DNA of 64,000 nucleotides from an uncultured Chloroflexia bacterium. Lineage in GTDB: Bacteria; Chloroflexota; Limnocylindria; QHBO01. The notes below the pieces were generated by a model. That model was not told the origin of the DNA. It saw nothing but the letters and a program-made list of their open reading frames with translations, and ran no database searches. The stretch covers positions 96,001 to 160,000 of the forward strand of contig CAWFCQ010000005.1 in assembly GCA_963814375.1 (NCBI GenBank), given 5' to 3'. The position numbers were made by a program, and so were the translations under genes. This document shows, in pieces, positions 8,589 through 62,945 of this stretch (position 1 is the stretch's first letter; every line of letters begins with the position of its first letter).

Positions 8589-8600
<12 letters not shown>
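8190..8600 (+). CDS. yjbQ: YjbQ/UPF0047 family protein
   Basis: FVPHATAG, HGADH, LGTWQSI motifs. Confidence 0.9.
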
Positions 8601-10642
<2,042 letters not shown>

Positions 10643-10702: not shown

Positions 10703-12605
10703 TTAGCCCGCGGACTCCACTGCGAATTGCTCCTGGTAGAGCTTGGCGTAGAGGCCCTCCTGGCGAATGAGCTCGGCGTGCGTGCCGCGCTCGACGATGC
10801 GCCCGCGCGCCATCACCAGGATCTGGTCGGCGCGCAGGATCGTGCTGAGCCGATGCGCGATGGCGATCGTCGTGCGGCCCTGCTCGAGTCGCGCCAGGGC
10901 GGCCTGGATGAGCCGTTCGCTCACGGTGTCGAGGGCGGAGGTGGCCTCGTCGAGAATGAGGATCCGCGGGTCCTTGAGCAGGACGCGCGCGATGGCCACC
11001 CGCTGCTTCTCGCCGCCGGAGAGCTTGTAGCCGCGCTCGCCGACCACGGTGTCGTACGCCTCGGGCAGCTCGAGGATCCGATCGTGGATCGCGGCGGCGG
11101 TCGCGGCAGCCTCGATCTCCTCCATCGTCGCCTCGGGCTTCGCGTAGCGCAGGTTGGACAGCACCGTGTCATGGAAGAGGTAGGTCTCCTGGGTGACGAA
11201 GCCGATCTCCCGCCCCAGCGACTGGAGCCTGATGCCGCGCACATCGATCCCGTCGATCAGGATCGACCCCGCGTCGACGTCGTAGAGGCGCGGGATGAGG
11301 TAGGTCGAGGTCGTCTTTCCGCCGCCCGATGGCCCCACCAGCGCCACCAGCTGGCCCGGTGCGGCGGTGTAGGTGATGTCCGCGAGGGCGAAGGGCATGA
11401 CGCGGCTCGGCATCGCGCGGCCGTCGGCCTCGGCCTCGACCATCTCCCGGGTCGCGTCGAGCTGCCCGGTCGACCACCGGGTAGTGGAAGGAGACGCCAT
11501 CGAAGCGAACCTCGCCGCGCATGGTCTCGGGGGTCAGCGTGACGGCGTCGGGCGCATCGACGATCTCGTGGTCCATCTCGAGGTACTCGAAGATGCGGTC
11601 GAAGAGCGCGAGGGCGCCCTGGATCTCGACCTGGACGTTGAGCAGCTGTCCGAGCGGGAAGAAGAGGCGCGACTGAAGGGTGGTGAACGCCACGATCGTC
11701 CCGATCGTAACGTCCGCCTCGCCGCCGATGATGAAGCTGCCCGCCAGCAGGTAGACGAAGGCCGGCATGATGCTGAAGAAGGTGCCGATGAGGGCGAAGA
11801 ACCAGCGCCCGATCATCTGGCCGCGCACCTGGAGGTCGCCGAGGCGCTGCGACTCGGCGCGGAATCGCTCGATCGACGCCTCCTGCTGACCGAACGTCTT
11901 GCTGAGGAGGATGCCCGAGACGCTGAGCGACTCCTCGGTGATCGCGCTCATCTCGGCCATCGATCGCTGGGTCAGAGTCGAGACCTCGCGCCGAACCTTC
12001 CCGACGCGGTAGGTGATGTACGCGAAGATCGGGAGCAGGCCGAGGCTCAGGATCGTGAGGCGCCAGTCGAGGATCCACATCGCGATGACGGTCGTGGCGA
12101 CCGTGGCGAAGTTCGAGAGGATGGAGGCGGCCGTATCGGTCACCACCGCCTGGACACCGCCGACGTCGTTGGCGATGCGGCTCTGGATCTCGCCGGTGCG
12201 CGTCTCGGTGAAGAAGCGCAGCGGCATCCACTGCAGGTGGCGATAGAGGGCGAGCCGCAGATCGTTCATGACCCGCTGGCCGACGACGTTCGACAGGTAC
12301 GACTGCCACACCCCGAGGGCGCTGGTGATGATCGGCAGGACGATCATGAGCCCGCACTGGATCCAGAGCAGGCTGAGGTCCTGCGGGCCGGTCAGGTTGT
12401 CGATGACCAGCTTGAGCAGGATCGGGTTGACCACGCCGATGCTGACGGTCACCAGGATCAGGACCGCGATGAAGGCGAGCCTCGCGCGGTAGGGCCTGAA
12501 GAAGCCGGCGATCCGCCGCAGCGTCGGCCCTTCGCTCCCCGGCCGTCGGCTCAGGTCCGGCTCCGGGCCGCCACCCCACATGCCACCGCCGCCGCGCCGG
12601 GTCAT
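10703..12605 (-). CDS. ABC exporter, fused permease/ATPase; frameshift near 11480
   Basis: TMD with [19 protein letters not shown]; [33 protein letters not shown]. Confidence 0.92.
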
Positions 12606-13841: not shown

Positions 13842-16622
13842 CTACTCGCCGAACATCGTCAGCTGCTCGCCACCGCGCTCGATCAGCGGATCCAGGCCGA
13901 GGACCGGCTCCAGCCACTCCATCCGGGCACCTGGGCGCGCGGCGAGGGTGGCGAGGTGCTGCCACTTCAGCACGTGCCAGTTCTGCCGGTCCATCTCGTC
14001 GCGCAGCCACGGAGAGCGCTGAATCTTCAGGCGCAGCAGCTCGGAGCGCTCGGCGGGGATGACGAGGAACCGTGCCTGCTGGTCGCCGACGGGAATCTTC
14101 CGGCCCCGAGTGAGGACGGCGTCGCCGACCATCGCGGTCCACTCCACCTCGAACAGGAACGCCAGCTTGCCGCGCACGTACCACAGCGCGTCCACCGCTC
14201 CCAGGGCCTCGACCGGCGCCCGGATCACCAGGGGCAGGTAGACGCGGCGCTCGTCGTCGTTGAGGCGGCTCGAGAGCCGCTCTCCATCGACCACGCGGTC
14301 GTGCTCACGAGCCGCGATCCAGGACCGCAGGCCGAGCCGATGTCCGTAGTCGGCGAGTGTGGCCAGAACGCGGGCGTGGTCCTCGGTTCGTCGCGCGAGG
14401 TCGTCATCGGTCGCGAGCGAGCCGAGCTCACCCGGCGCGACATAGGCGGCCAGGCACGCTCGCACCAGCTCTTCGTCAGGAGCCGCGAGGCCGGGGAAGA
14501 GCCGGAAGATGCGGTCGAAGAACCCGGCCTCGTCGATTCGTCCGGCCGTCGCGAGCACGGACCAGGTCGCCCACTCCACCCGGTCCGCCAGCGGCTGCTC
14601 GGCCACCTCGGGGTTGCGGAGCCACCACAGCGGCCTCGCTTCGTCACCGATGCGGACGAGCGAGGGATGGTCGTCGCGCCACAGCTCCTCGCGCACCAGC
14701 GAGCCCAGCATGTGCGGCCCGCTGCCCTCGATGCGATCCTCGGGAGCGTCGTCGTCGCCAGCCCGCGTCACGGCGATACGCCGCAGCAGGCCGGAGCGAC
14801 CGAGCTCCGCGACGATGGCCGCGACCATGCGCGTCAGCCCCGCCGGCTCGCCGCGGTCGCGGAGCAGTGCCGAGGCGGCGCCATCGATGCCGGCCGCCAG
14901 CTCGGGATAGGTCAGGTGCCCACCCTCGACACCGAGACGCAGGGGGCTCGGCGTCACCGCACGCCGAAGGCGATCCTCGGCCGAGGGCTTGCGCAGGTGG
15001 AGCACGACGCCATCGCCGGTGCGGCCCGACTCGCGGTGAATGACGTCGACCAGCTCCAGGCCCGCGGCAGCACCGGCAACCGCGGTGGCGAGAAGCCGGT
15101 CCGGATCGGCATCCTCGATGAGAAGCGTGCACCAGCCGCCCGGCTTGAGGGCGCCGGCCGCAGAGCTGAGCCCGTGCCTGAGGGCAGTGGCCTCGGCCCC
15201 GGATGCCTGCCCGCCGCTGCCGAAGATGGGCTCCAGCCGCAGGGTCTCGGCCGCCTCCCTGCCGAGGATCCAGGACGTTGCCAGGTACTCGTACGACAGC
15301 TCGTCGATCGATGGGCTGGCGGGAGGCGCCGCCACGACGAGATCGACGCCCTCGGCCGGAACGTACTGTCCGACCACTGCGGGCCGTGACCTCAGCCACA
15401 GAACGTTCGCCGCACCCATCCCACCCAGCTCACCGTAGTCCGCGGCAAAGCGCGCCTCCTGGCGGTCGCGAGGCAGGGCGGCGATGGTCGCCCGCACGTC
15501 CGCGAACGAGGATTCGAAGGCGCGCCACACGTTGACCTCGCGCTGATGGCGGCTCGCCGGCTGTCGGACGTGGCCGCCCGAGATCCTCAGCGACGCGACG
15601 CGGCCCGGATAGCCGTTGAGCCGGCTTGCGGGGAGCAGGCACGCCGCGAGGGCCAGGCGCATCGCCGCGACCGTCCCGGCGTCGCGGAGCTCCGACTCGA
15701 TCTTCGAGCCGATGGCGTGGAGCGCGTAGAGGTTGCGCGCGGTGTACAGGTCGAGGAGCTCCTCGACGAGGTCATCGCGGCCGTCGAGCACCGGAAATCG
15801 TGCCCGGAGCTCGAGGTACTGCGGGCTGTGGCGCACGCCGCCGGCGGCCGCAGCGACCGGCACCGGATCGGGGCGCACGGTCGATGCGAAGCGCGGGCCA
15901 TCGCCCAGCGGCGGATCGGTGACAGCCGGCGGTGGCGATGGCGGCCCGCCCGCCTCGCCGAATGGCTCGTCGTCCGCCCCGGGCAGCGGCGGGTCGGGCT
16001 CGGTCAGGCCGACGGGCGCCGGGGGAAGGTCGTCGGCAGCCGCATCGGGAACGCTGGGTCCGTCCCCGAGCTCTCCGCGCTCGATCCCGAGCTTGGCGAG
16101 GTCGACTTCGTCCACCGGGGCGGCACGCTCCTCCGGGCCGCCGAGCGACGCGTCGCAGCTCGCGCAGCGGTAGAGCTTGCGTCCCGGAGCGTCGCCGTCC
16201 CGGGGCCAGATGAACTGGTCGGCAACGACGGGACGCCGGCAGGTCCCGCAGCGCGTCGCGTACAGCTCCTCGATGTGCTGACGCAGCGGCACGTCGACGC
16301 GGCGCGAGCTGGCGAGCTGGGCAAACGCCGCATCGAGCACCGCCGGATCCGGGGCAGACAGGAAACAGATCGCCGCGAGCTGGTTGAAGGGGCTCGGATC
16401 GGCAGCCACGGCCCGCATGCCATGGCCGATCGCGCGCCGCGCCGTCCAGCCGGTGCCCGCCCAGGGATCGAGGACGGTGTCGCCGGAGGACGCGAAGGCG
16501 CTGAGCTCGGCGTCGAGCAGGTTGTCGGCCGGTGGCGGCCGATAGCGCTCGAGAAGGGCGAGGCCGGGGCGCCGTCGCGGGAGGACGACGTGGTCGAGTC
16601 CTGTCCGCTCCGGCTCGCTCAT
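13842..16622 (-). CDS. 926-aa DNA amino-methyltransferase-like protein (degenerate) with Zn-finger insertion and C-terminal PD-(D/E)xK-like nuclease domain
   Basis: GDTVLDPWAGTG (motif I), CGTC..CASC, LYTARNL, NVW, VDLVVAAPP (motif IV position), LKPGG, VDALWY..FEVEW, C-terminal QLTMF. Confidence 0.7.
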   Translation of the reverse strand: MSEPERTGLDHVVLPRRRPGLALLERYRPPPADNLLDAELSAFASSGDTVLDPWAGTGWTARRAIGHGMRAVAADPSPFNQLAAICFLSAPDPAVLDAAFAQLASSRRVDVPLRQHIEELYATRCGTCRRPVVADQFIWPRDGDAPGRKLYRCASCDASLGGPEERAAPVDEVDLAKLGIERGELGDGPSVPDAAADDLPPAPVGLTEPDPPLPGADDEPFGEAGGPPSPPPAVTDPPLGDGPRFASTVRPDPVPVAAAAGGVRHSPQYLELRARFPVLDGRDDLVEELLDLYTARNLYALHAIGSKIESELRDAGTVAAMRLALAACLLPASRLNGYPGRVASLRISGGHVRQPASRHQREVNVWRAFESSFADVRATIAALPRDRQEARFAADYGELGGMGAANVLWLRSRPAVVGQYVPAEGVDLVVAAPPASPSIDELSYEYLATSWILGREAAETLRLEPIFGSGGQASGAEATALRHGLSSAAGALKPGGWCTLLIEDADPDRLLATAVAGAAAGLELVDVIHRESGRTGDGVVLHLRKPSAEDRLRRAVTPSPLRLGVEGGHLTYPELAAGIDGAASALLRDRGEPAGLTRMVAAIVAELGRSGLLRRIAVTRAGDDDAPEDRIEGSGPHMLGSLVREELWRDDHPSLVRIGDEARPLWWLRNPEVAEQPLADRVEWATWSVLATAGRIDEAGFFDRIFRLFPGLAAPDEELVRACLAAYVAPGELGSLATDDDLARRTEDHARVLATLADYGHRLGLRSWIAAREHDRVVDGERLSSRLNDDERRVYLPLVIRAPVEALGAVDALWYVRGKLAFLFEVEWTAMVGDAVLTRGRKIPVGDQQARFLVIPAERSELLRLKIQRSPWLRDEMDRQNWHVLKWQHLATLAARPGARMEWLEPVLGLDPLIERGGEQLTMFGE

Positions 16623-17553: not shown

Positions 17554-18351
17554 CGCGGGGCTGCCAGTCCCCCGCCCATCGCCGACGCGAGCAGGCCGAC
17601 GACCAGCCCGAGGATCATCAGCGACCCGTACTCGGTCGCGACCGCTCGACCCGACGCATCACCGCGAAGGGCGTCGACCGCGCCCGGCCCACGTGTAGAA
17701 GGCGAGCGCCATGAGGGCGGCCATCACGGCGCTCGAAATGTCGAGCAGCACGGATGCCACCCCGATCTGGATGATGACGAGGAGGTGCAGCACCGCCTGG
17801 CCGAGCGCCTGGACCCCCATCGTCCCTCGCGCCTCTGCCGAGCGAATGGCAACCGGCAGCGTGAGGCCGGCCACGAGGATGAACGGCGTGGGCCACACGC
17901 GGGCCCCGAAGAGGCCGAGGATGCCGGCTGCGGCGGTGAAGACGATCGACGTCAGCAACAGCTCGCCGATGGTGCGTCCGCCCGTACCCCGCTCGATGCG
18001 CAGCTCCAGGTAGGTCACCGCCCACAGCAGGACCGCCACGATCGGGATCAGCAGGAGGCTCAGGCCGCCTGGGATGAGACGCCCGAAGAGGGTCGCGGCG
18101 ATGCCGGCCACCGAAGGCATCGCGTATCGCGCCAGGCCGAGCTCGGAGCGCGCGGGCCCGATCACGTACACGGCGGCCAGGCCACCCAGCACCAGCTGGG
18201 CGGCGATGACCACCGCGAGCACGACCGGATCCGCGAACCAGCCGACCGCGGCGACCAGCGCCTGGAGCACGGCGATCAGGACCGCGGCGGGCCGGTCGAT
18301 GCGGCGTAGGACGGAGAGGCGCCGTCGGTCGGCCAGGACCCTCCCGATCAC
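17550..18351 (-). CDS. Polytopic membrane protein (DUF5656-like); frameshift near 17685
   Basis: GTG overlaps the polX stop; about 8 hydrophobic segments; repaired C-terminus ..AVATEYGSLMILGLVVGLL.. Confidence 0.6.
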
Positions 18352-20099
18352 GCGAGCACCTCGAGCAGCGCCGTAGCCGAGCGCGTGGCGAGGAGCTGGT
18401 CGGGCTCGAGCCAGGCACGGCGCGCGAGGTCGACGGCGTAGCGCTGCTGGTCGAGCTCCTCGGTCCGGTGCGCGTCCGAGGCGAGCGTCAGGCGCGCCCC
18501 GGCGCGCGCCGCCGCCCGCGCGAGCGGGTCGTCGAGGTCCAGCCTCGGACTGCCGTTGATCTCGAGCGCGGTGTTGCATCGCGCCGCGGCCTCGAAGACG
18601 CGTGGCCAGTCGATCGGGAGGGGGTCGCGGGTGTTGACGATACGCCCGGTCGGATGGGCAAGAACGTCGACGTGCGGATGCTCGACCGCGGCGAGCGCGC
18701 GGCGGGTGAGCTGCTCGGACGACTGGCCGCGACCGGTGTGGATGCTTGCGATGACGACCTCGAAGCGCTCGAGGAGCTCGTCCGGATAGTCGAGGGTGGC
18801 ATCCGCCCTGATCTCGAGCTCGGTGCCGTGGAGCACACGGAATGGGGCGAGCTCCGCGTTGACCCGCGCGATCTCGGCACGTTGCTCCTCGACGCGGTCG
18901 GGGAGGAGGCCGCGGGCCACCCCGAGCGAGGGTGAATGGTCGGTCAGGACGATGTACTCGTGGCCCCGATCCCGCGCCGCCCGCGCCATGACCTCGATGG
19001 AGTCGACCCCGTCGGTCCAGTTCGAGTGGGTATGGGTGTCGCCGCGAACGTCCCGGTGGGTGACGAGGTTGGGAAGCCGCCCATCCCTGGCGGCCTCGAT
19101 CTCGCCTGCCGCCTCGCGGAGCTCCGGCGGGATCCACGGGAGCCCGAGGCGCTCGTAGACGTCGGCCTCCTCGGCGTCGAGCAGCAGGTCACCGGTCTCG
19201 ATGACCTTGAAGCCCTTCTCCGAGAGCGACCAGCCACGGTCGAGGGCCATCCCGCGCAGCGCGATGTTGTGATCCGCGTTCCCCGTGAAGTGGACGAGAT
19301 GCGAGCCCCAGGTCTCCGGCGGGCAGACCATGAGGTCGACGCGCGGTCCGTCGGCGAGCAGGATGCTCGTCTTGTCGGTCCCGGCGGCCACGACCTTGTC
19401 GACCTCGCGCAGCCGGTCCAGCGCCGCGATCACCGCCGGTGGGTCATCGACGGCAGCGAGCAGGTCGATGTCACCGATCGTCGTGCGCCGCCTCCGCAGC
19501 GACCCGGCCCGCTCGATGCGGCTCACGCCCCGTGCTTCCCTCAGCTGGTCGATCAGCCCGGCGACGAGCTCATCGGCGTCGTGGAGCAGCATCCGGTCGT
19601 AAACGCGCTCCATCCGCGCGATGCCGTCGATGATGTTCGCTTCCGTTCGTTCGGAGAGGCCCTTCACGTGCCGCAGGCGGCCCTCCTCGGCGGCCGCTCG
19701 TAGCGCTTCGACGGAGTCGATGCCGAGCTCGGTGTGGAGCAGCCGGACCGTCTTGGGGCCGACGCCAGAGATCCGAAGGATCTGGAGGAGGCCGTCTGGC
19801 ACCTGCGCGCGCAGCCGCTCGTAATATTCGAGGCGTCCGGTTTCCGCCAGCTCCGCGAGCTTGGCGGTCAGTGCCTCGCCGGCGCCGGGGATCTTCGGTG
19901 GCTGGCCGCGACGGTAGAGCGCAGCGACGTCGTCGGGATAGCGCTCAACCGCATCGGCGACGCGGCGGTAGGCGACGGCCTTGTACACCACCTCGCCGAG
20001 GATCTCGAGCATGTCGCCGATCTCGTTGAAGATCCGCGCCAGCTCCGCGTTGCTGATGACGGTGCCGTCGGTGCGCGACACGCTCCTGGGTCGAGGCAT
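18348..20099 (-). CDS. polX: DNA polymerase X / PHP 3'-5' exonuclease
   Basis: HhH GVGPKT, GSLRR..GDIDLL, VDL, HFTG, PHP HTHSNWTDG, TDHS, AHPTGR, SDAH. Confidence 0.95.
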   Translation of the reverse strand: MPRPRSVSRTDGTVISNAELARIFNEIGDMLEILGEVVYKAVAYRRVADAVERYPDDVAALYRRGQPPKIPGAGEALTAKLAELAETGRLEYYERLRAQVPDGLLQILRISGVGPKTVRLLHTELGIDSVEALRAAAEEGRLRHVKGLSERTEANIIDGIARMERVYDRMLLHDADELVAGLIDQLREARGVSRIERAGSLRRRRTTIGDIDLLAAVDDPPAVIAALDRLREVDKVVAAGTDKTSILLADGPRVDLMVCPPETWGSHLVHFTGNADHNIALRGMALDRGWSLSEKGFKVIETGDLLLDAEEADVYERLGLPWIPPELREAAGEIEAARDGRLPNLVTHRDVRGDTHTHSNWTDGVDSIEVMARAARDRGHEYIVLTDHSPSLGVARGLLPDRVEEQRAEIARVNAELAPFRVLHGTELEIRADATLDYPDELLERFEVVIASIHTGRGQSSEQLTRRALAAVEHPHVDVLAHPTGRIVNTRDPLPIDWPRVFEAAARCNTALEINGSPRLDLDDPLARAAARAGARLTLASDAHRTEELDQQRYAVDLARRAWLEPDQLLATRSATALLEVLA

Positions 20100-24463: not shown

Positions 24464-25102
24464 TCAAACGCTCCCCGACCCCGGATCGTTCCCCGGCAGG
24501 ACTCCCTCGAGATGAAGCAGGTAGCGCTTGCGCTCGAGGCCGCCGGTGTAACCGCCCAGCCCGCCGCCGGTATGGAGCACCCGATGGCAGGGCACGACGA
24601 TCGGCATCGGGTTCGAGCCCAACGCGTTGCCGGCGGCGCGGTACGCGTTCGGAGAGCCCGCCGCCACGGCGATCTCGCGATAGCTGGAGACGCTTCCGAA
24701 CGGGATGCGCGCCGCGGCGCGCAGGACCTCGGCGCGGAAGCCTGCCAGCAGGCGCCAGTCGATCGGCAGGTCGAAGCGACGGCGGCTCCCGGCGAAGTAC
24801 TCGTCGAGCTGGCGGCGGATCGTGTCAGTCCGCTCGGGGGCGGCCAGCACCCGTGGTGAGATCGTGGCGGCGAGCTCGTCGAGCTGAGCGTCGATCGGCT
24901 CCCCGGGGTACGAGAGGCGCACGAGGCCGCGGGGCGTCACGAACGCCGTCAGGGCTCCCAGGGGCGAGTCGAGGCTGCCGTAGGCGACGTCGAGGATGCC
25001 ATCGGCCGCCGCCCGTCGCGCGAGGGATTGGCGCAGCGCGGTGAGGTCGAGAGGCGCGCCCGTCGGCGGATCGCCGAGGCGGCGCTCGAGGTCGTCGGTC
25101 AT
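24464..25102 (-). CDS. ogt: Methylated-DNA-protein-cysteine methyltransferase with N-terminal extension
   Basis: DSPLG, QLDEYFAG, IPFG..SY, RAAGNA..NP, VVPCHRV. Confidence 0.93.
   Translation of the reverse strand: MTDDLERRLGDPPTGAPLDLTALRQSLARRAAADGILDVAYGSLDSPLGALTAFVTPRGLVRLSYPGEPIDAQLDELAATISPRVLAAPERTDTIRRQLDEYFAGSRRRFDLPIDWRLLAGFRAEVLRAAARIPFGSVSSYREIAVAAGSPNAYRAAGNALGSNPMPIVVPCHRVLHTGGGLGGYTGGLERKRYLLHLEGVLPGNDPGSGSV
24467..24492 (-). promoter_or_regulatory. ECF-type promoter GGAAC-N17-CGTT upstream of the lipoprotein
   Basis: GGAAC (24492-24488), 17 nt, CGTT (24470-24467). Confidence 0.5.
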
Positions 25103-25566
25103 GGCGCCACCTCCCTGCGCAGCCGCCGGAGCCCGGCGCTCACGTTCTGCCGGGCGGCCTCCTCGCTCGTGCCCATCCGAGCGCCGATCTCGGCGTAGGC
25201 GAGGTCGAGCACGAACCGATGCACGATCGCCGCCCGCTGCTTGGCGGGCAGCTCGCGCACCGTCGACCACAGCCCATCGTCCGCCGGCTCGGGCGATGCC
25301 GCGGCGACCGGGTCGATGGCGGCGAGGTCGCTCGTCGGGCGACGCGCGCGGCGACGGACGGCATCGGTGGCCTTGCGCTGGGCGATCGTGTACAGCCAGG
25401 CACGGAGGTTCTCAGCGTGGCGGATGCGCGGATAGGCGCGGAGCGCGGACATGAAGGTCTCCTGGAGGCAGTCGTCCGCCTCGGTCGGGCCCACGAGGCC
25501 CACGAGGAACCGATGCAGCTCGTGCGCGTGATCGTCGACGAGCGACTCGAACGGCGGCAGGTGCAC
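25099..25566 (-). CDS. ECF RNA polymerase sigma factor
   Basis: ADDCLQETFMSA, AWLYTIA, LPAKQRAAI, LAYAEIG..M..S. Confidence 0.9.
   Translation of the reverse strand: MHLPPFESLVDDHAHELHRFLVGLVGPTEADDCLQETFMSALRAYPRIRHAENLRAWLYTIAQRKATDAVRRRARRPTSDLAAIDPVAAASPEPADDGLWSTVRELPAKQRAAIVHRFVLDLAYAEIGARMGTSEEAARQNVSAGLRRLRREVAP

Positions 25567-61664: not shown

Positions 61665-62923
<1,259 letters not shown>

Positions 62924-62945
<22 letters not shown>

Follow-up and report, generated by a model that had tools for sequence, protein, structure and literature searches.

A Limnocylindria core protein combining an apparently inactive DNA methyltransferase, an NmeDI_C nuclease-like domain and a putative sliding-clamp-binding tail

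Introduction

NucS/EndoMS, found in archaea and Actinobacteria, is a repair enzyme that couples a RecB-like restriction-type nuclease to a distinct DNA-sensing domain and carries a clamp-binding peptide at its C terminus (PMC4929162). It is the closest functional analogue of the protein described in this report, P0001, which is 926 residues long and is encoded on the minus strand of a 64,000-nt stretch of chromosomal DNA (~70% GC) from an uncultured Chloroflexia bacterium (assembly GCA_963814375.1, contig CAWFCQ010000005.1, positions 96,001 to 160,000). The whole stretch is referred to as the window. P0001 features a degenerate DNA methyltransferase module, a nuclease-like domain of the NmeDI_C family and a short tail that matches sliding-clamp-binding motifs. 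The two proteins are alike in outline only and are not homologous. NucS, which is 251 residues long in P. abyssi, has an Sm/OB-like sensing domain and no methyltransferase fold. No sequence match to NucS was found in P0001, and the P. abyssi structure (2vld) was recovered only at a Foldseek E value of 0.64, which is not significant; membership of P0001 in NucS/EndoMS was rejected on these two grounds.

The C-terminal domain of P0001 belongs to a Pfam family named after R.NmeDI, a 351-residue Type II endonuclease of Neisseria meningitidis. R.NmeDI is a stand-alone nuclease that has a separate C5 methyltransferase as its partner and cuts on both sides of RCCGGY (PMC2095814). In contrast, the corresponding domain of P0001 is fused to an apparently dead amino-methyltransferase, has no partner gene and is accompanied by a clamp motif.

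Type IIC/IIG enzymes carry, as P0001 does, a methyltransferase and a nuclease in one chain, and P0001 is also related to a PADLOC profile of Type II methyltransferases. Unlike these enzymes, P0001 very probably lacks methyltransferase activity, judging from its residues, is encoded by a core rather than a mobile gene and carries a putative clamp-binding tail. Eukaryotic Dnmt1, a C5 methyltransferase without a nuclease, is recruited to PCNA by a short motif. This coupling may be likened to that of the active relatives of P0001 described below, although lineage, mechanism and purpose differ. The strand choice or activity of MutH depends on the methylation state of DNA. In B. subtilis, MutL is a nuclease whose strand choice or activity depends on the sliding clamp (PMC6511837). 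P0001 has neither a GHKL nor a MutL endonuclease domain and no homology to MutH, and any link of P0001 to mismatches is speculation.

No description of a methyltransferase-endonuclease fusion with a clamp motif, or of the Chloroflexota family to which P0001 belongs, was found in the PMC open-access or bioRxiv literature. A genomics paper on Limnocylindraceae reports the loss of base-excision-repair glycosylases, and the available part of its text does not mention the P0001 protein (PMC13212565). By sequence comparison, the methyltransferase catalytic loop is lost throughout the family, nuclease residues are retained in the group that includes P0001, the tail matches clamp motifs and the gene is a core syntenic gene. 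We propose, at roughly even chances, that P0001 is the domesticated descendant of a single-chain methyltransferase-endonuclease, in which a nuclease would be tethered to the sliding clamp and a dead methyltransferase would read DNA or S-adenosylmethionine (SAM).

Results

Family-wide loss of the methyltransferase catalytic loop

P0001 is encoded by one uninterrupted frame, as had been claimed in the original prediction, which was made from the sequence alone and described an open reading frame (ORF) intact over 2.8 kb. Its GC content at third codon positions (0.87) is that usual for real genes of the window. The motifs named in that prediction are all in place. DPWAGTG (residues 52-58) and VDALWYVRGKLAFLFEVEW (residues 810-828, 14139-14195) lie exactly where predicted, while the degenerate VDLVVAAPPA, predicted at about 15313-15350, occupies the slightly shorter interval given in Table 1. 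The CxxC..CxxC pair (C125, C128, C153 and C156), LYTARNL (residues 292-298) and LKPGG (residues 492-496) are retained. Since they are conserved over hundreds of relatives, the named motifs are far beyond chance.

In a word-indexed protein search, 8000 candidates were scored and 1393 of them matched at E ≤ 1e-3. The best 120, hereafter the close homologues, are 849-946 residues long and 73-100% identical to P0001; those bearing organism names come from Candidatus Limnocylindria or Chloroflexota metagenome-assembled genomes. An exhaustive search of representatives clustered at 50% identity gave 1236 matches at E ≤ 1e-3, 711 at E ≤ 1e-10 and 185 at E ≤ 1e-30. A second set was obtained with P0243, one of three distant representatives that keep the canonical motif IV, as the seed. 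This search returned 871 proteins at E ≤ 1e-3 among 8000 candidates, and the best 120, together with P0252, make up the 121 active relatives. Most of these proteins are 790-900 residues long. All 121 contain DPPY, and 117 match [DN]PFxGxG by pattern. Three of them bear organism names, two from Woesearchaeota and one from Aenigmarchaeota.

In a hidden Markov model alignment with the 121 active relatives, the residues T-D-P-P-Y-G, each found in 98-100% of these catalytically intact proteins, fall on residues 431-436 of P0001. In the AlphaFold model, the AAPPA segment comes after a beta strand (426-431), as motif IV does. Alignment and model strand both place AAPPA at the motif IV position. The loss of DPPY noted earlier in P0001 proved to be family-wide, the canonical (D/N/S)PP(Y/F/W/H) being found in none of the 120 close homologues. 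These carry A, S or T at the position of the aspartate, and P, A, V, S, R, Q or I at that of the aromatic residue. The position is covered by 85 of 150 distant representatives, 3 of which read TDPPY. Few positions of the domain are less conserved among the 120 close homologues than the catalytic ones (0.3-0.7 identity); motif I is near-invariant.

The intact motif I and D75 would also suit a working Type IIC/IIG-like restriction-modification enzyme with an unconventional catalytic loop. A candidate loop is the xDPP[ST]G motif of the linker at residues 186-262, as 113 of the 120 close homologues feature in this linker a [DS]PPx sequence resembling the TDPPYG of active relatives. We regard such an enzyme as highly improbable. 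The linker motif has no aromatic residue in 118 of the 120 homologues, lies in a segment with a predicted local distance difference test score (pLDDT) of ~41 and a conservation of 0.39, and is absent from all other groups of the dead clade. Moreover, the catalytic half of the fold keeps few invariant positions (see below), and the variation at the aspartate and aromatic positions of motif IV argues in the same direction. P0001 was searched throughout for other (D/N/S)PP(Y/F/W/H) motifs, and none was found. Two of the 120 close homologues contain one, in both cases inside the disordered linker. An intact catalytic motif elsewhere in the protein was rejected, as the DPP motifs sit in the disordered linker and lack the aromatic residue.

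On Pfam N6_N4_Mtase (PF01555), P0001 scores 12.7 bits against a cut-off of 26.7 (E 0.13), over residues 40-69 only; scores of 73-77 bits are reached by the active relatives P0243, P0252 and P0261. When the full-length protein was scanned locally against Pfam and NCBIfam, no family passed its cut-off, and NCBIfam matches to 'YLP-box' and MTA/SAH nucleosidase entries (E 0.03-0.7) were dismissed as noise. With phmmer against PDB sequences, a match of motif I to M.RsrI (FAGSG) alone was obtained (E 0.065). The PADLOC Type II methyltransferase profile MTase_II (1344 positions) matches residues 286-526 (E 6.5e-9). A Foldseek search of the PDB with the whole P0001 model recovered SAM-dependent methyltransferases only, the best match being weak (E 8.8e-4). 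As modelled, the fold of P0001 is still that of a class I (Rossmann-like) methyltransferase. In enzymes of this class, the acid at the motif II position binds the ribose of SAM.

The fate of individual residues was assessed by counting positions that are at least 93% invariant in the active relatives and scoring them as kept if present in more than 90% of the 120 Limnocylindria proteins. The two halves of the methyltransferase keep 10 of 32 (N-terminal) and 11 of 58 (C-terminal) such positions. The corresponding figures are 6 of 7 for the zinc ribbon, 12 of 19 for the helical region, 17 of 37 for the middle region and 16 of 31 for the nuclease domain. Within the methyltransferase part, the SAM loop (D52, P53, G56 and G58) and the motif II acid (D75) are kept, and T431-D-P-P-Y-G436 and many aromatic residues have been lost. 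The original prediction that the methyltransferase is catalytically dead is supported by the absence of motif IV from all close homologues, by the low conservation of catalytic positions and by the count for the C-terminal half. From these residues, the module is almost certainly dead. With the catalytic loop and most residues of the target-base pocket lost, it would no longer methylate DNA. The role suggested for it, a SAM- or DNA-sensing module controlling the nuclease, is plausible; retention of the SAM-loop glycines and of D75 in P0001 lends it indirect support, as does the distribution of the acid at position 75 across the family (see below).

The nuclease-like domain retains a putative active site

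The name NmeDI_C for PF27126 is that given in the Atlas, and a local Pfam scan of P0001 did not detect a match to NmeDI_C. The PADLOC REase_II profile PDLC03534 (351 positions) matches residues 743-833 of P0001 (E 0.047); of 15 C-terminal sequences from family members, 7 are matched as well (best E 1.5e-5). We infer from its length that this profile represents NmeDI. When a stand-alone NmeDI-like relative was sought among shorter proteins, only fragments of the P0001 family were returned.

The candidate active-site residues of the domain are H749, D811, E825, E827 and E858. D811, E825 and E827 are present in all 121 active relatives, in which the second and third acids are embedded in FE[VI]E[NH]T. 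In the D811-x13-E825-V-E827 element, an acid replaces the lysine of D...(D/E)xK. The ExE arrangement is catalytic in BamHI. Conservation of the predicted D..EVE element held in 119 of the 120 close homologues, with the correction that the second acid of EVE is D (EVD) in 17 of the 120. E858 is invariant in a separate C-terminal alignment.

Helices at 742-762 and 833-842 and strands at 766-769, 812-816, 819-826 and 850-855 of the model occur in an order that fits the PD-(D/E)xK core. A separate model of residues 575-926 (pLDDT 81.0) was used for Foldseek searches. Restriction-type nucleases were frequent among the weak matches (Can2, MspJI, FokI, HindIII, BstEII, NucS 2vld and AF1548) and are not counted as confirmation. 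The earlier description of this region thus stands as regards the NmeDI_C restriction-endonuclease family and the kept acids; in structural terms, the 'ExE variant of PD-(D/E)xK' found no significant Foldseek match.

Fifty-two representatives with a dead methyltransferase were compared. D811, E825 and E827 are kept in 20 of these proteins and not in the other 32. In the latter, H749 is found in 3%, E825 in 0%, E827 in 6%, E858 in 31% and D811 in 69% of the sequences. The all-or-none behaviour of the set formed by H749, E825 and E827 is what an active site under selection would look like, and joint retention or loss of H749, D811, E825, E827 and E858 suggests that the nuclease site of P0001 is a working one. 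Mg-dependent nuclease or nickase activity has probably been preserved in the NmeDI_C domain.

Three states of the family

The active relatives form a sister clade of single-chain proteins (about 810-830 residues) that combine N6_N4_Mtase and NmeDI_C and match P0001 at phmmer E values of 1e-36 to 1e-39. No paper on this clade was found in the literature searched. Domain order is the same as in P0001: the N-terminal half of the methyltransferase, zinc ribbon, helical region, C-terminal half of the methyltransferase, middle helical region, NmeDI_C and a short tail. The nuclease residues are also the same in 121/121 proteins. In contrast to P0001, the sister clade keeps DPFxGSG and TDPPYG, passes the N6_N4_Mtase cut-off and lacks the Pro-rich linker, and its tails are mostly of the PCNA-interacting-peptide (PIP) type (82/121), while that of P0001 reads QLTMF.

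Three states can be distinguished in the family: an active methyltransferase with a nuclease (A), a dead methyltransferase with a nuclease (B, including P0001), and both modules dead (C). All three have retained the zinc ribbon, R296, E362/N364/W366, W814, R859 and W882. Active and dead groups are split by one branch in a FastTree analysis of 76 rows (Shimodaira-Hasegawa (SH)-like support 100) and in a quick IQ-TREE analysis of 47 rows (support 100). In a careful IQ-TREE analysis (47 rows, 812 columns), this branch has an ultrafast bootstrap and SH-like approximate likelihood ratio test support of 100/100, and all 200 bootstrap trees show a single change. To account for the nuclease-dead state, a minimum of three changes is required on the tree; well-supported branches force two of these.

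G56 and G58 of the SAM loop are found in all 121 state A proteins and in the Limnocylindria group, and in 0/16 other state B and 0/32 state C rows. An acid at position 75 is found in 121/121, 20/20 and 4/32 of the A, B and C rows, respectively. This distribution hints that cofactor site and nuclease may be functionally coupled. A clamp motif occurs within the last 30 residues in 19 of 20 state B and 29 of 32 state C rows.

The existence of state C bears on a distinctly unlikely alternative, in which P0001 would be a non-catalytic clamp-bound DNA-binding factor, replisome scaffold or regulator, both modules would be relics and the acids would bind metal or DNA only. The features common to all three states are indeed non-catalytic (the residues listed above and the tail), and most state C rows keep the tail. 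In the Limnocylindria group, however, the triad is kept in 119 of 120 homologues. H749, D811, E825, E827 and E858 are retained as a single set, the same one as in the 121 active relatives, a pattern like that of purifying selection on an active site, and motif I and D75 are kept as well.

Many active relatives (~820 residues; P0243 and P0409-P0526) are annotated at source as '16S rRNA G966 N2-methylase RsmD' or 'DNA modification methylase'. Given the NmeDI_C domain and the mostly PIP-box tail, these annotations are probably wrong or incomplete. In one representative, P0137 (207 residues), family residues 1-184 are followed by an acidic tail near-identical to the C terminus of the tetratricopeptide repeat (TPR) protein encoded upstream of the family gene; P0137 is probably an assembly or gene-call chimera.

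A conserved C-terminal tail matches sliding-clamp-binding motifs

The most conserved segment of P0001 is its tail (residues 901-926), the last part of which (919-926) has a pLDDT below 50. The consensus of peptides that bind the bacterial beta clamp is QL(D/S)LF, typically located in flexible termini (PMC6511837). PCNA-binding peptides, also typically in flexible termini, follow the consensus QxxLxxFF or QXXhXXaa (PMC6511837, PMC4929162).

Motifs were counted in the last 16 residues, and the number expected by chance was obtained by shuffling the last 40. The clamp motif is present in all 120 close homologues (1.6 expected). Among dead-clade representatives with an intact C terminus, Q[LIVM]x[LIVM][FLIW] occurs in 62 of 67 (1.0 expected) and the PIP type in 0 of 67. 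In the active relatives, the PIP-type motif Qxx[LIVM]xx[FYW] occurs in 82 of 121 (1.1 expected), and the 3 relatives with an organism name are all DPANN archaea with PIP-type tails.

A complex of residues 890-926 (14-row alignment) with E. coli DnaN was modelled, the DnaN gene being absent from the 64-kb window. The model scored 0.74, a mark reached by 116 of 157 solved complexes and by 2 of 215 mismatched pairs; the best of three controls scored 0.02. Contacts are at least 92% consistent between runs, and the pLDDT of the partner is at least 47. Contacts are made by residues 917-924 and 926 of P0001 and by clamp residues 172, 174-175, 177, 242, 247, 275, 277-278, 280, 320, 344, 346, 360 and 362-366. 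Met362, Met364 and Phe278, which are part of the binding groove of the clamp (PMC6511837), are all contacted. The complex model supports binding of the tail to the clamp cleft.

It is very unlikely that the peptide is no clamp ligand and serves as an intramolecular or oligomerisation element of the NmeDI_C family, its likeness to clamp motifs being coincidental. Clamp motifs are short, degenerate and often over-predicted (PMC6511837). In addition, the active relatives include 23 of 121 without a recognisable motif, and the complex was modelled with a foreign clamp and may owe its score to memorised structures. Coincidence is nevertheless difficult to reconcile with the excess over shuffled tails (about 1 per group expected, against 120/120, 62/67 and 82/121 seen) and with the location of the motif at the extreme disordered terminus, in the most conserved segment of the protein. 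The type of motif also differs between groups, as the Chloroflexota clade features QLxLF, and the clade with the three named archaea mostly Qxx[LIVM]xx[FYW]. Such switching would not be expected of a self-contact element. Finally, the modelled contacts fall on the known cleft residues named above (PMC6511837).

P0001 is encoded by a vertically inherited core gene

Genomes (one per species) were scanned with a 14-sequence alignment. At least 598 stretches matched, at least 581 of which encode a relative, and the best 80 loci, all Limnocylindria-like, were kept. The gene is found in the same arrangement in 80/80 loci. The PolX, membrane-protein and TPR genes precede it on the same strand. It is followed by a convergent gene for a CsoR-type repressor and then by PIG-L, ABC transporter and YyaL-like genes. 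Neighbours are missing only at contig ends (TPR, CsoR and PolX are present in 70, 69 and 67 of the 80 loci, respectively). The ORF is intact and at least 900 residues long in 66 loci, is cut by contig ends in nine and is interrupted in five, all of which belong to assemblies with isolate names beginning MFD. Among the comparisons listed, median identity to the window proteins is 68% for P0001, 74% for PolX and 78.5% for PIG-L; for the upstream TPR protein, of which the C-terminal part was compared, it is 67.8%.

A tblastn search of 72,556 plasmid records with P0001 gave no match, and neither a partner methyltransferase nor defence genes are present in its neighbourhood. The gene is a vertically inherited core gene of Limnocylindria and not a mobile defence gene. 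The original prediction had treated P0001 as a variant restriction enzyme. The comparisons point to a core gene that encodes a conserved, putatively clamp-binding tail, and with these two features a part in replication or repair becomes more likely than one in defence.

When plasmid records were searched with the methyltransferase part of P0243, an active relative, 211 records matched, and none covered 80% of the query. The two best matches adjoin genes for an AAA ATPase and a DUF2357 protein, which shows that the module has a restriction-modification ancestry. This descent favours the view that P0001 is a modification-dependent (Type IV-like) or otherwise defensive nuclease, whose dead pocket would recognise foreign modified bases and whose tail would direct it to replicating invader DNA. 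The Atlas contains related clusters with an N6_N4_Mtase plus Mrr_cat architecture, the nuclease residues are kept, and a pocket that is product-like and non-catalytic would be well suited to reading methylated bases. A defensive role is nonetheless unlikely. Defence genes are usually patchy in distribution and undergo turnover. The gene for P0001, in contrast, occupies one syntenic chromosomal place among housekeeping genes in all 80 loci, is about as diverged as its neighbours and has no plasmid copies. PADLOC matches are only weak, and a clamp-binding tail in Type IV enzymes was not found in the PMC open-access or bioRxiv literature.

Proposed mode of action

We favour, at the even chances stated above, a clamp-tethered nuclease derived from a methyltransferase-endonuclease. 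In this model, the invariant flexible peptide ..GEQLTMFGE would dock into the hydrophobic cleft of the beta sliding clamp, and the clamp would bring the protein to newly replicated DNA or repair patches and orient it there. A feature of the DNA would be read by the dead methyltransferase, the zinc ribbon and the helical module, with SAM as a possible allosteric ligand. Candidates for this feature are a sequence, a modification state, a flipped or damaged base and a mismatch. Its reading would license incision by the nuclease domain.

Several observations weigh against this model. As regards the tail, the 23 active relatives without a recognisable motif are accompanied by 16 of 121 with a bacterial-type motif (7 with the pentapeptide only, 9 with QxxLF). 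The clamp used for modelling is a stand-in from another phylum, and, as many clamp-peptide complexes have been solved, the pass of the complex model may reflect motif likeness. As regards the nuclease, Foldseek gave no significant match for the 575-926 model (best E 0.058 in the PDB and 0.031 in a viral library), and a C-terminal profile search of PDB sequences found nothing. The loss of nuclease residues in 32 of 52 dead-clade representatives, 29 of which keep the tail, implies that the conserved function of the wider clade needs no nuclease. The correlation between nuclease and acid at position 75 rests on few independent changes (three on the tree) and is confounded by phylogeny. Because the trees are unrooted, loss rather than gain of motif IV rests on the general conservation of this motif in methyltransferases. 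Finally, the synteny with PolX is no better than that with unrelated neighbours.

A wider reading, which we hold to be quite doubtful, is that the whole family, active and dead, constitutes an undescribed class of sliding-clamp-coupled DNA-surveillance enzymes, the Chloroflexota form of which would be a strand-specific reader-nuclease licensed by SAM. In archaea and some bacteria, a methyltransferase-nuclease tethered to PCNA or the beta clamp would mark and police nascent DNA. A single conversion in Chloroflexota would have produced a housekeeping, clamp-oriented reader-nuclease that incises DNA strand-specifically behind the fork and is licensed when SAM occupies the dead methyltransferase. 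If true, post-replicative errors or lesions would be corrected in a third way, in addition to those of MutH/MutL and NucS.

Dead-enzyme sensors are recurrent, while a restriction-modification enzyme turned into a core clamp-tethered protein was not found described in the PMC open-access or bioRxiv literature. The family provides a natural series for the domestication of a defence enzyme, from proteins with both modules active, through those with a dead methyltransferase and a nuclease, to those in which both are dead and the clamp motif is still carried. P0001 points to a component of the replisome or repair interactome that has gone unrecognised in Chloroflexota, a large phylum with mostly uncultured members, and many archaeal 'DNA modification methylases' are suggested to be PCNA clients.

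Domain layout of P0001

The features of P0001 are listed in Table 1. An AlphaFold2 model was obtained from a 58-sequence alignment (mean pLDDT 86.2; predicted template modelling score 0.84). The N-terminal half of the Rossmann-type methyltransferase fold, including motif I, spans residues 1-120 and is followed by the zinc ribbon (121-185, with beta strands modelled at 122-169), the disordered linker (186-262) and a helical/beta region (263-400). The second half of the methyltransferase fold, which contains the motif IV strand, spans residues 401-560. A helical middle region (570-740), an alpha-beta-beta-beta-alpha-beta domain (741-900) and the disordered end of the tail (919-926) complete the protein.

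Table 1 Features of P0001 and of the adjacent upstream gene. Positions are those of the window.
Feature	Residues	Coordinates	Strand	Conservation or remark
ORF P0001, apparently dead methyltransferase / NmeDI_C nuclease-like / putative clamp-binding-tail protein	1-926	13842..16622	-	one intact frame
C-terminal tail, MEWLEPVLGLDPLIERGGEQLTMFGE	901-926	13845..13922	-	mean conservation 0.97; 22/26 positions invariant in 120 homologues
QLTMF, putative beta-sliding-clamp-binding motif	920-924	13851..13865	-	QLT[MI]F in 120/120 close homologues
NmeDI_C nuclease-like domain	741-900	13923..14402	-	PF27126.1, precomputed for the cluster of P0001 and many homologues
E858, candidate active-site acid in the helix after strand 4	858	14049..14051	-	0.85 and 0.97 in nuclease-retaining groups
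D811 ... E825-V-E827, putative catalytic acids	811-827	14142..14192	-	D..EV[ED]WT in 119/120 close homologues
H749, putative active-site residue	749	14376..14378	-	20/20 nuclease-retaining dead-clade rows, 100% of 121 active relatives
Helical / winged-helix-like middle region	570-740	14403..14915	-	pLDDT >90; RGEPA, PLADRVEWA and FPGxxxPD motifs
LKPGG, opens a core methyltransferase strand (492-503 in the model)	492-496	15135..15149	-	L492 and K493 kept relative to active relatives
VDLVVAAPPA, degenerate motif IV	426-435	15318..15347	-	aligned to TDPPYG of active relatives
Helical/beta region with LYTARNL (R296) and REVNVW (E362, N364, W366)		15525..15749	-	R296, E362 and W366 invariant in 58 sequences
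Disordered Pro/Asp-rich linker	186-262	15837..16067	-	pLDDT 41-56; mean conservation 0.39
Cys4 zinc ribbon inserted in the methyltransferase fold		16155..16250	-	C125, C128 and C153 invariant, C156 >=90%, in 58 diverse sequences
D75, acid ending strand 2 (motif II position)	75	16398..16400	-	D in 119/120 close homologues
DPWAGTG, motif I SAM loop	52-58	16449..16469	-	DPWAG[TSAI]G in 117/119 close homologues, plus 2 DPWGGTG
TPR-domain gene, upstream, 6 nt from the start codon of P0001		16629..17478	-	TPR Pfam matches; upstream in 70/80 loci

The helical/beta region is a probable DNA-contact or target-recognition part. In the middle region, R590, E592, P593, E683, F709, P715 and Y727 are near-invariant. 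The linker is confined, among the aligned relatives, to the Limnocylindria group, and relatives of the P0125 type lack it. It carries the short conserved motifs LPPAPVGLT, PLGExGGPP, xDPP[ST]G and PRFASTV, the xDPP motif being located at 15903-15923 on the minus strand. This motif may be a docking site for another partner.

Neighbouring genes and other features of the window

The TPR gene is probably co-transcribed with that for P0001. In the window, it is split into two overlapping ORFs, the frame changing between 17156 and 17167. In locus L001, it is a single 282-residue ORF that ends 6 nt before the P0001 homologue, and in 68 of 70 loci it is covered by a single high-scoring segment pair. 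The frame change is either an assembly indel or a real frameshift. Relatives of the TPR protein are Chloroflexota-specific TPR proteins of unknown function.

Other housekeeping genes of the window occur on the minus strand as two or three overlapping ORFs in different frames (8589-10642, 10703-12605 and 61690-62945). These encode a thioredoxin-domain YyaL-like protein, an ABC transporter, with an overlap of ~330 nt between its membrane and ATPase parts, and S-adenosylhomocysteine hydrolase, which is in two pieces. The split genes suggest indel errors in the assembly, a background against which the 2.8-kb ORF of P0001 is intact. A scan for promoters and terminators detected one promoter-like site, for the CsoR gene, and no terminators.

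Two DNA-repair genes are located nearby, both on the minus strand. A family X polymerase with a PHP domain (18348-20099) is encoded two genes upstream of P0001, on the same strand, and an O6-methylguanine-DNA methyltransferase is encoded at 24464-25270. A functional link to PolX was set aside, as all neighbours are equally syntenic. In L001, there is a 4-nt overlap between the stop codon of the PolX gene and the start of the membrane-protein gene that follows.

Eight of the 80 loci (L006, L007, L017, L021, L038, L053, L057 and L068) have titles that name Steroidobacteraceae, Binatia, Dormiibacterota, Pleomorphomonadaceae or Methylomirabilota. They share the same gene order and are 65-81% identical to the Limnocylindria gene, and are probably mis-binned or mislabelled contigs.

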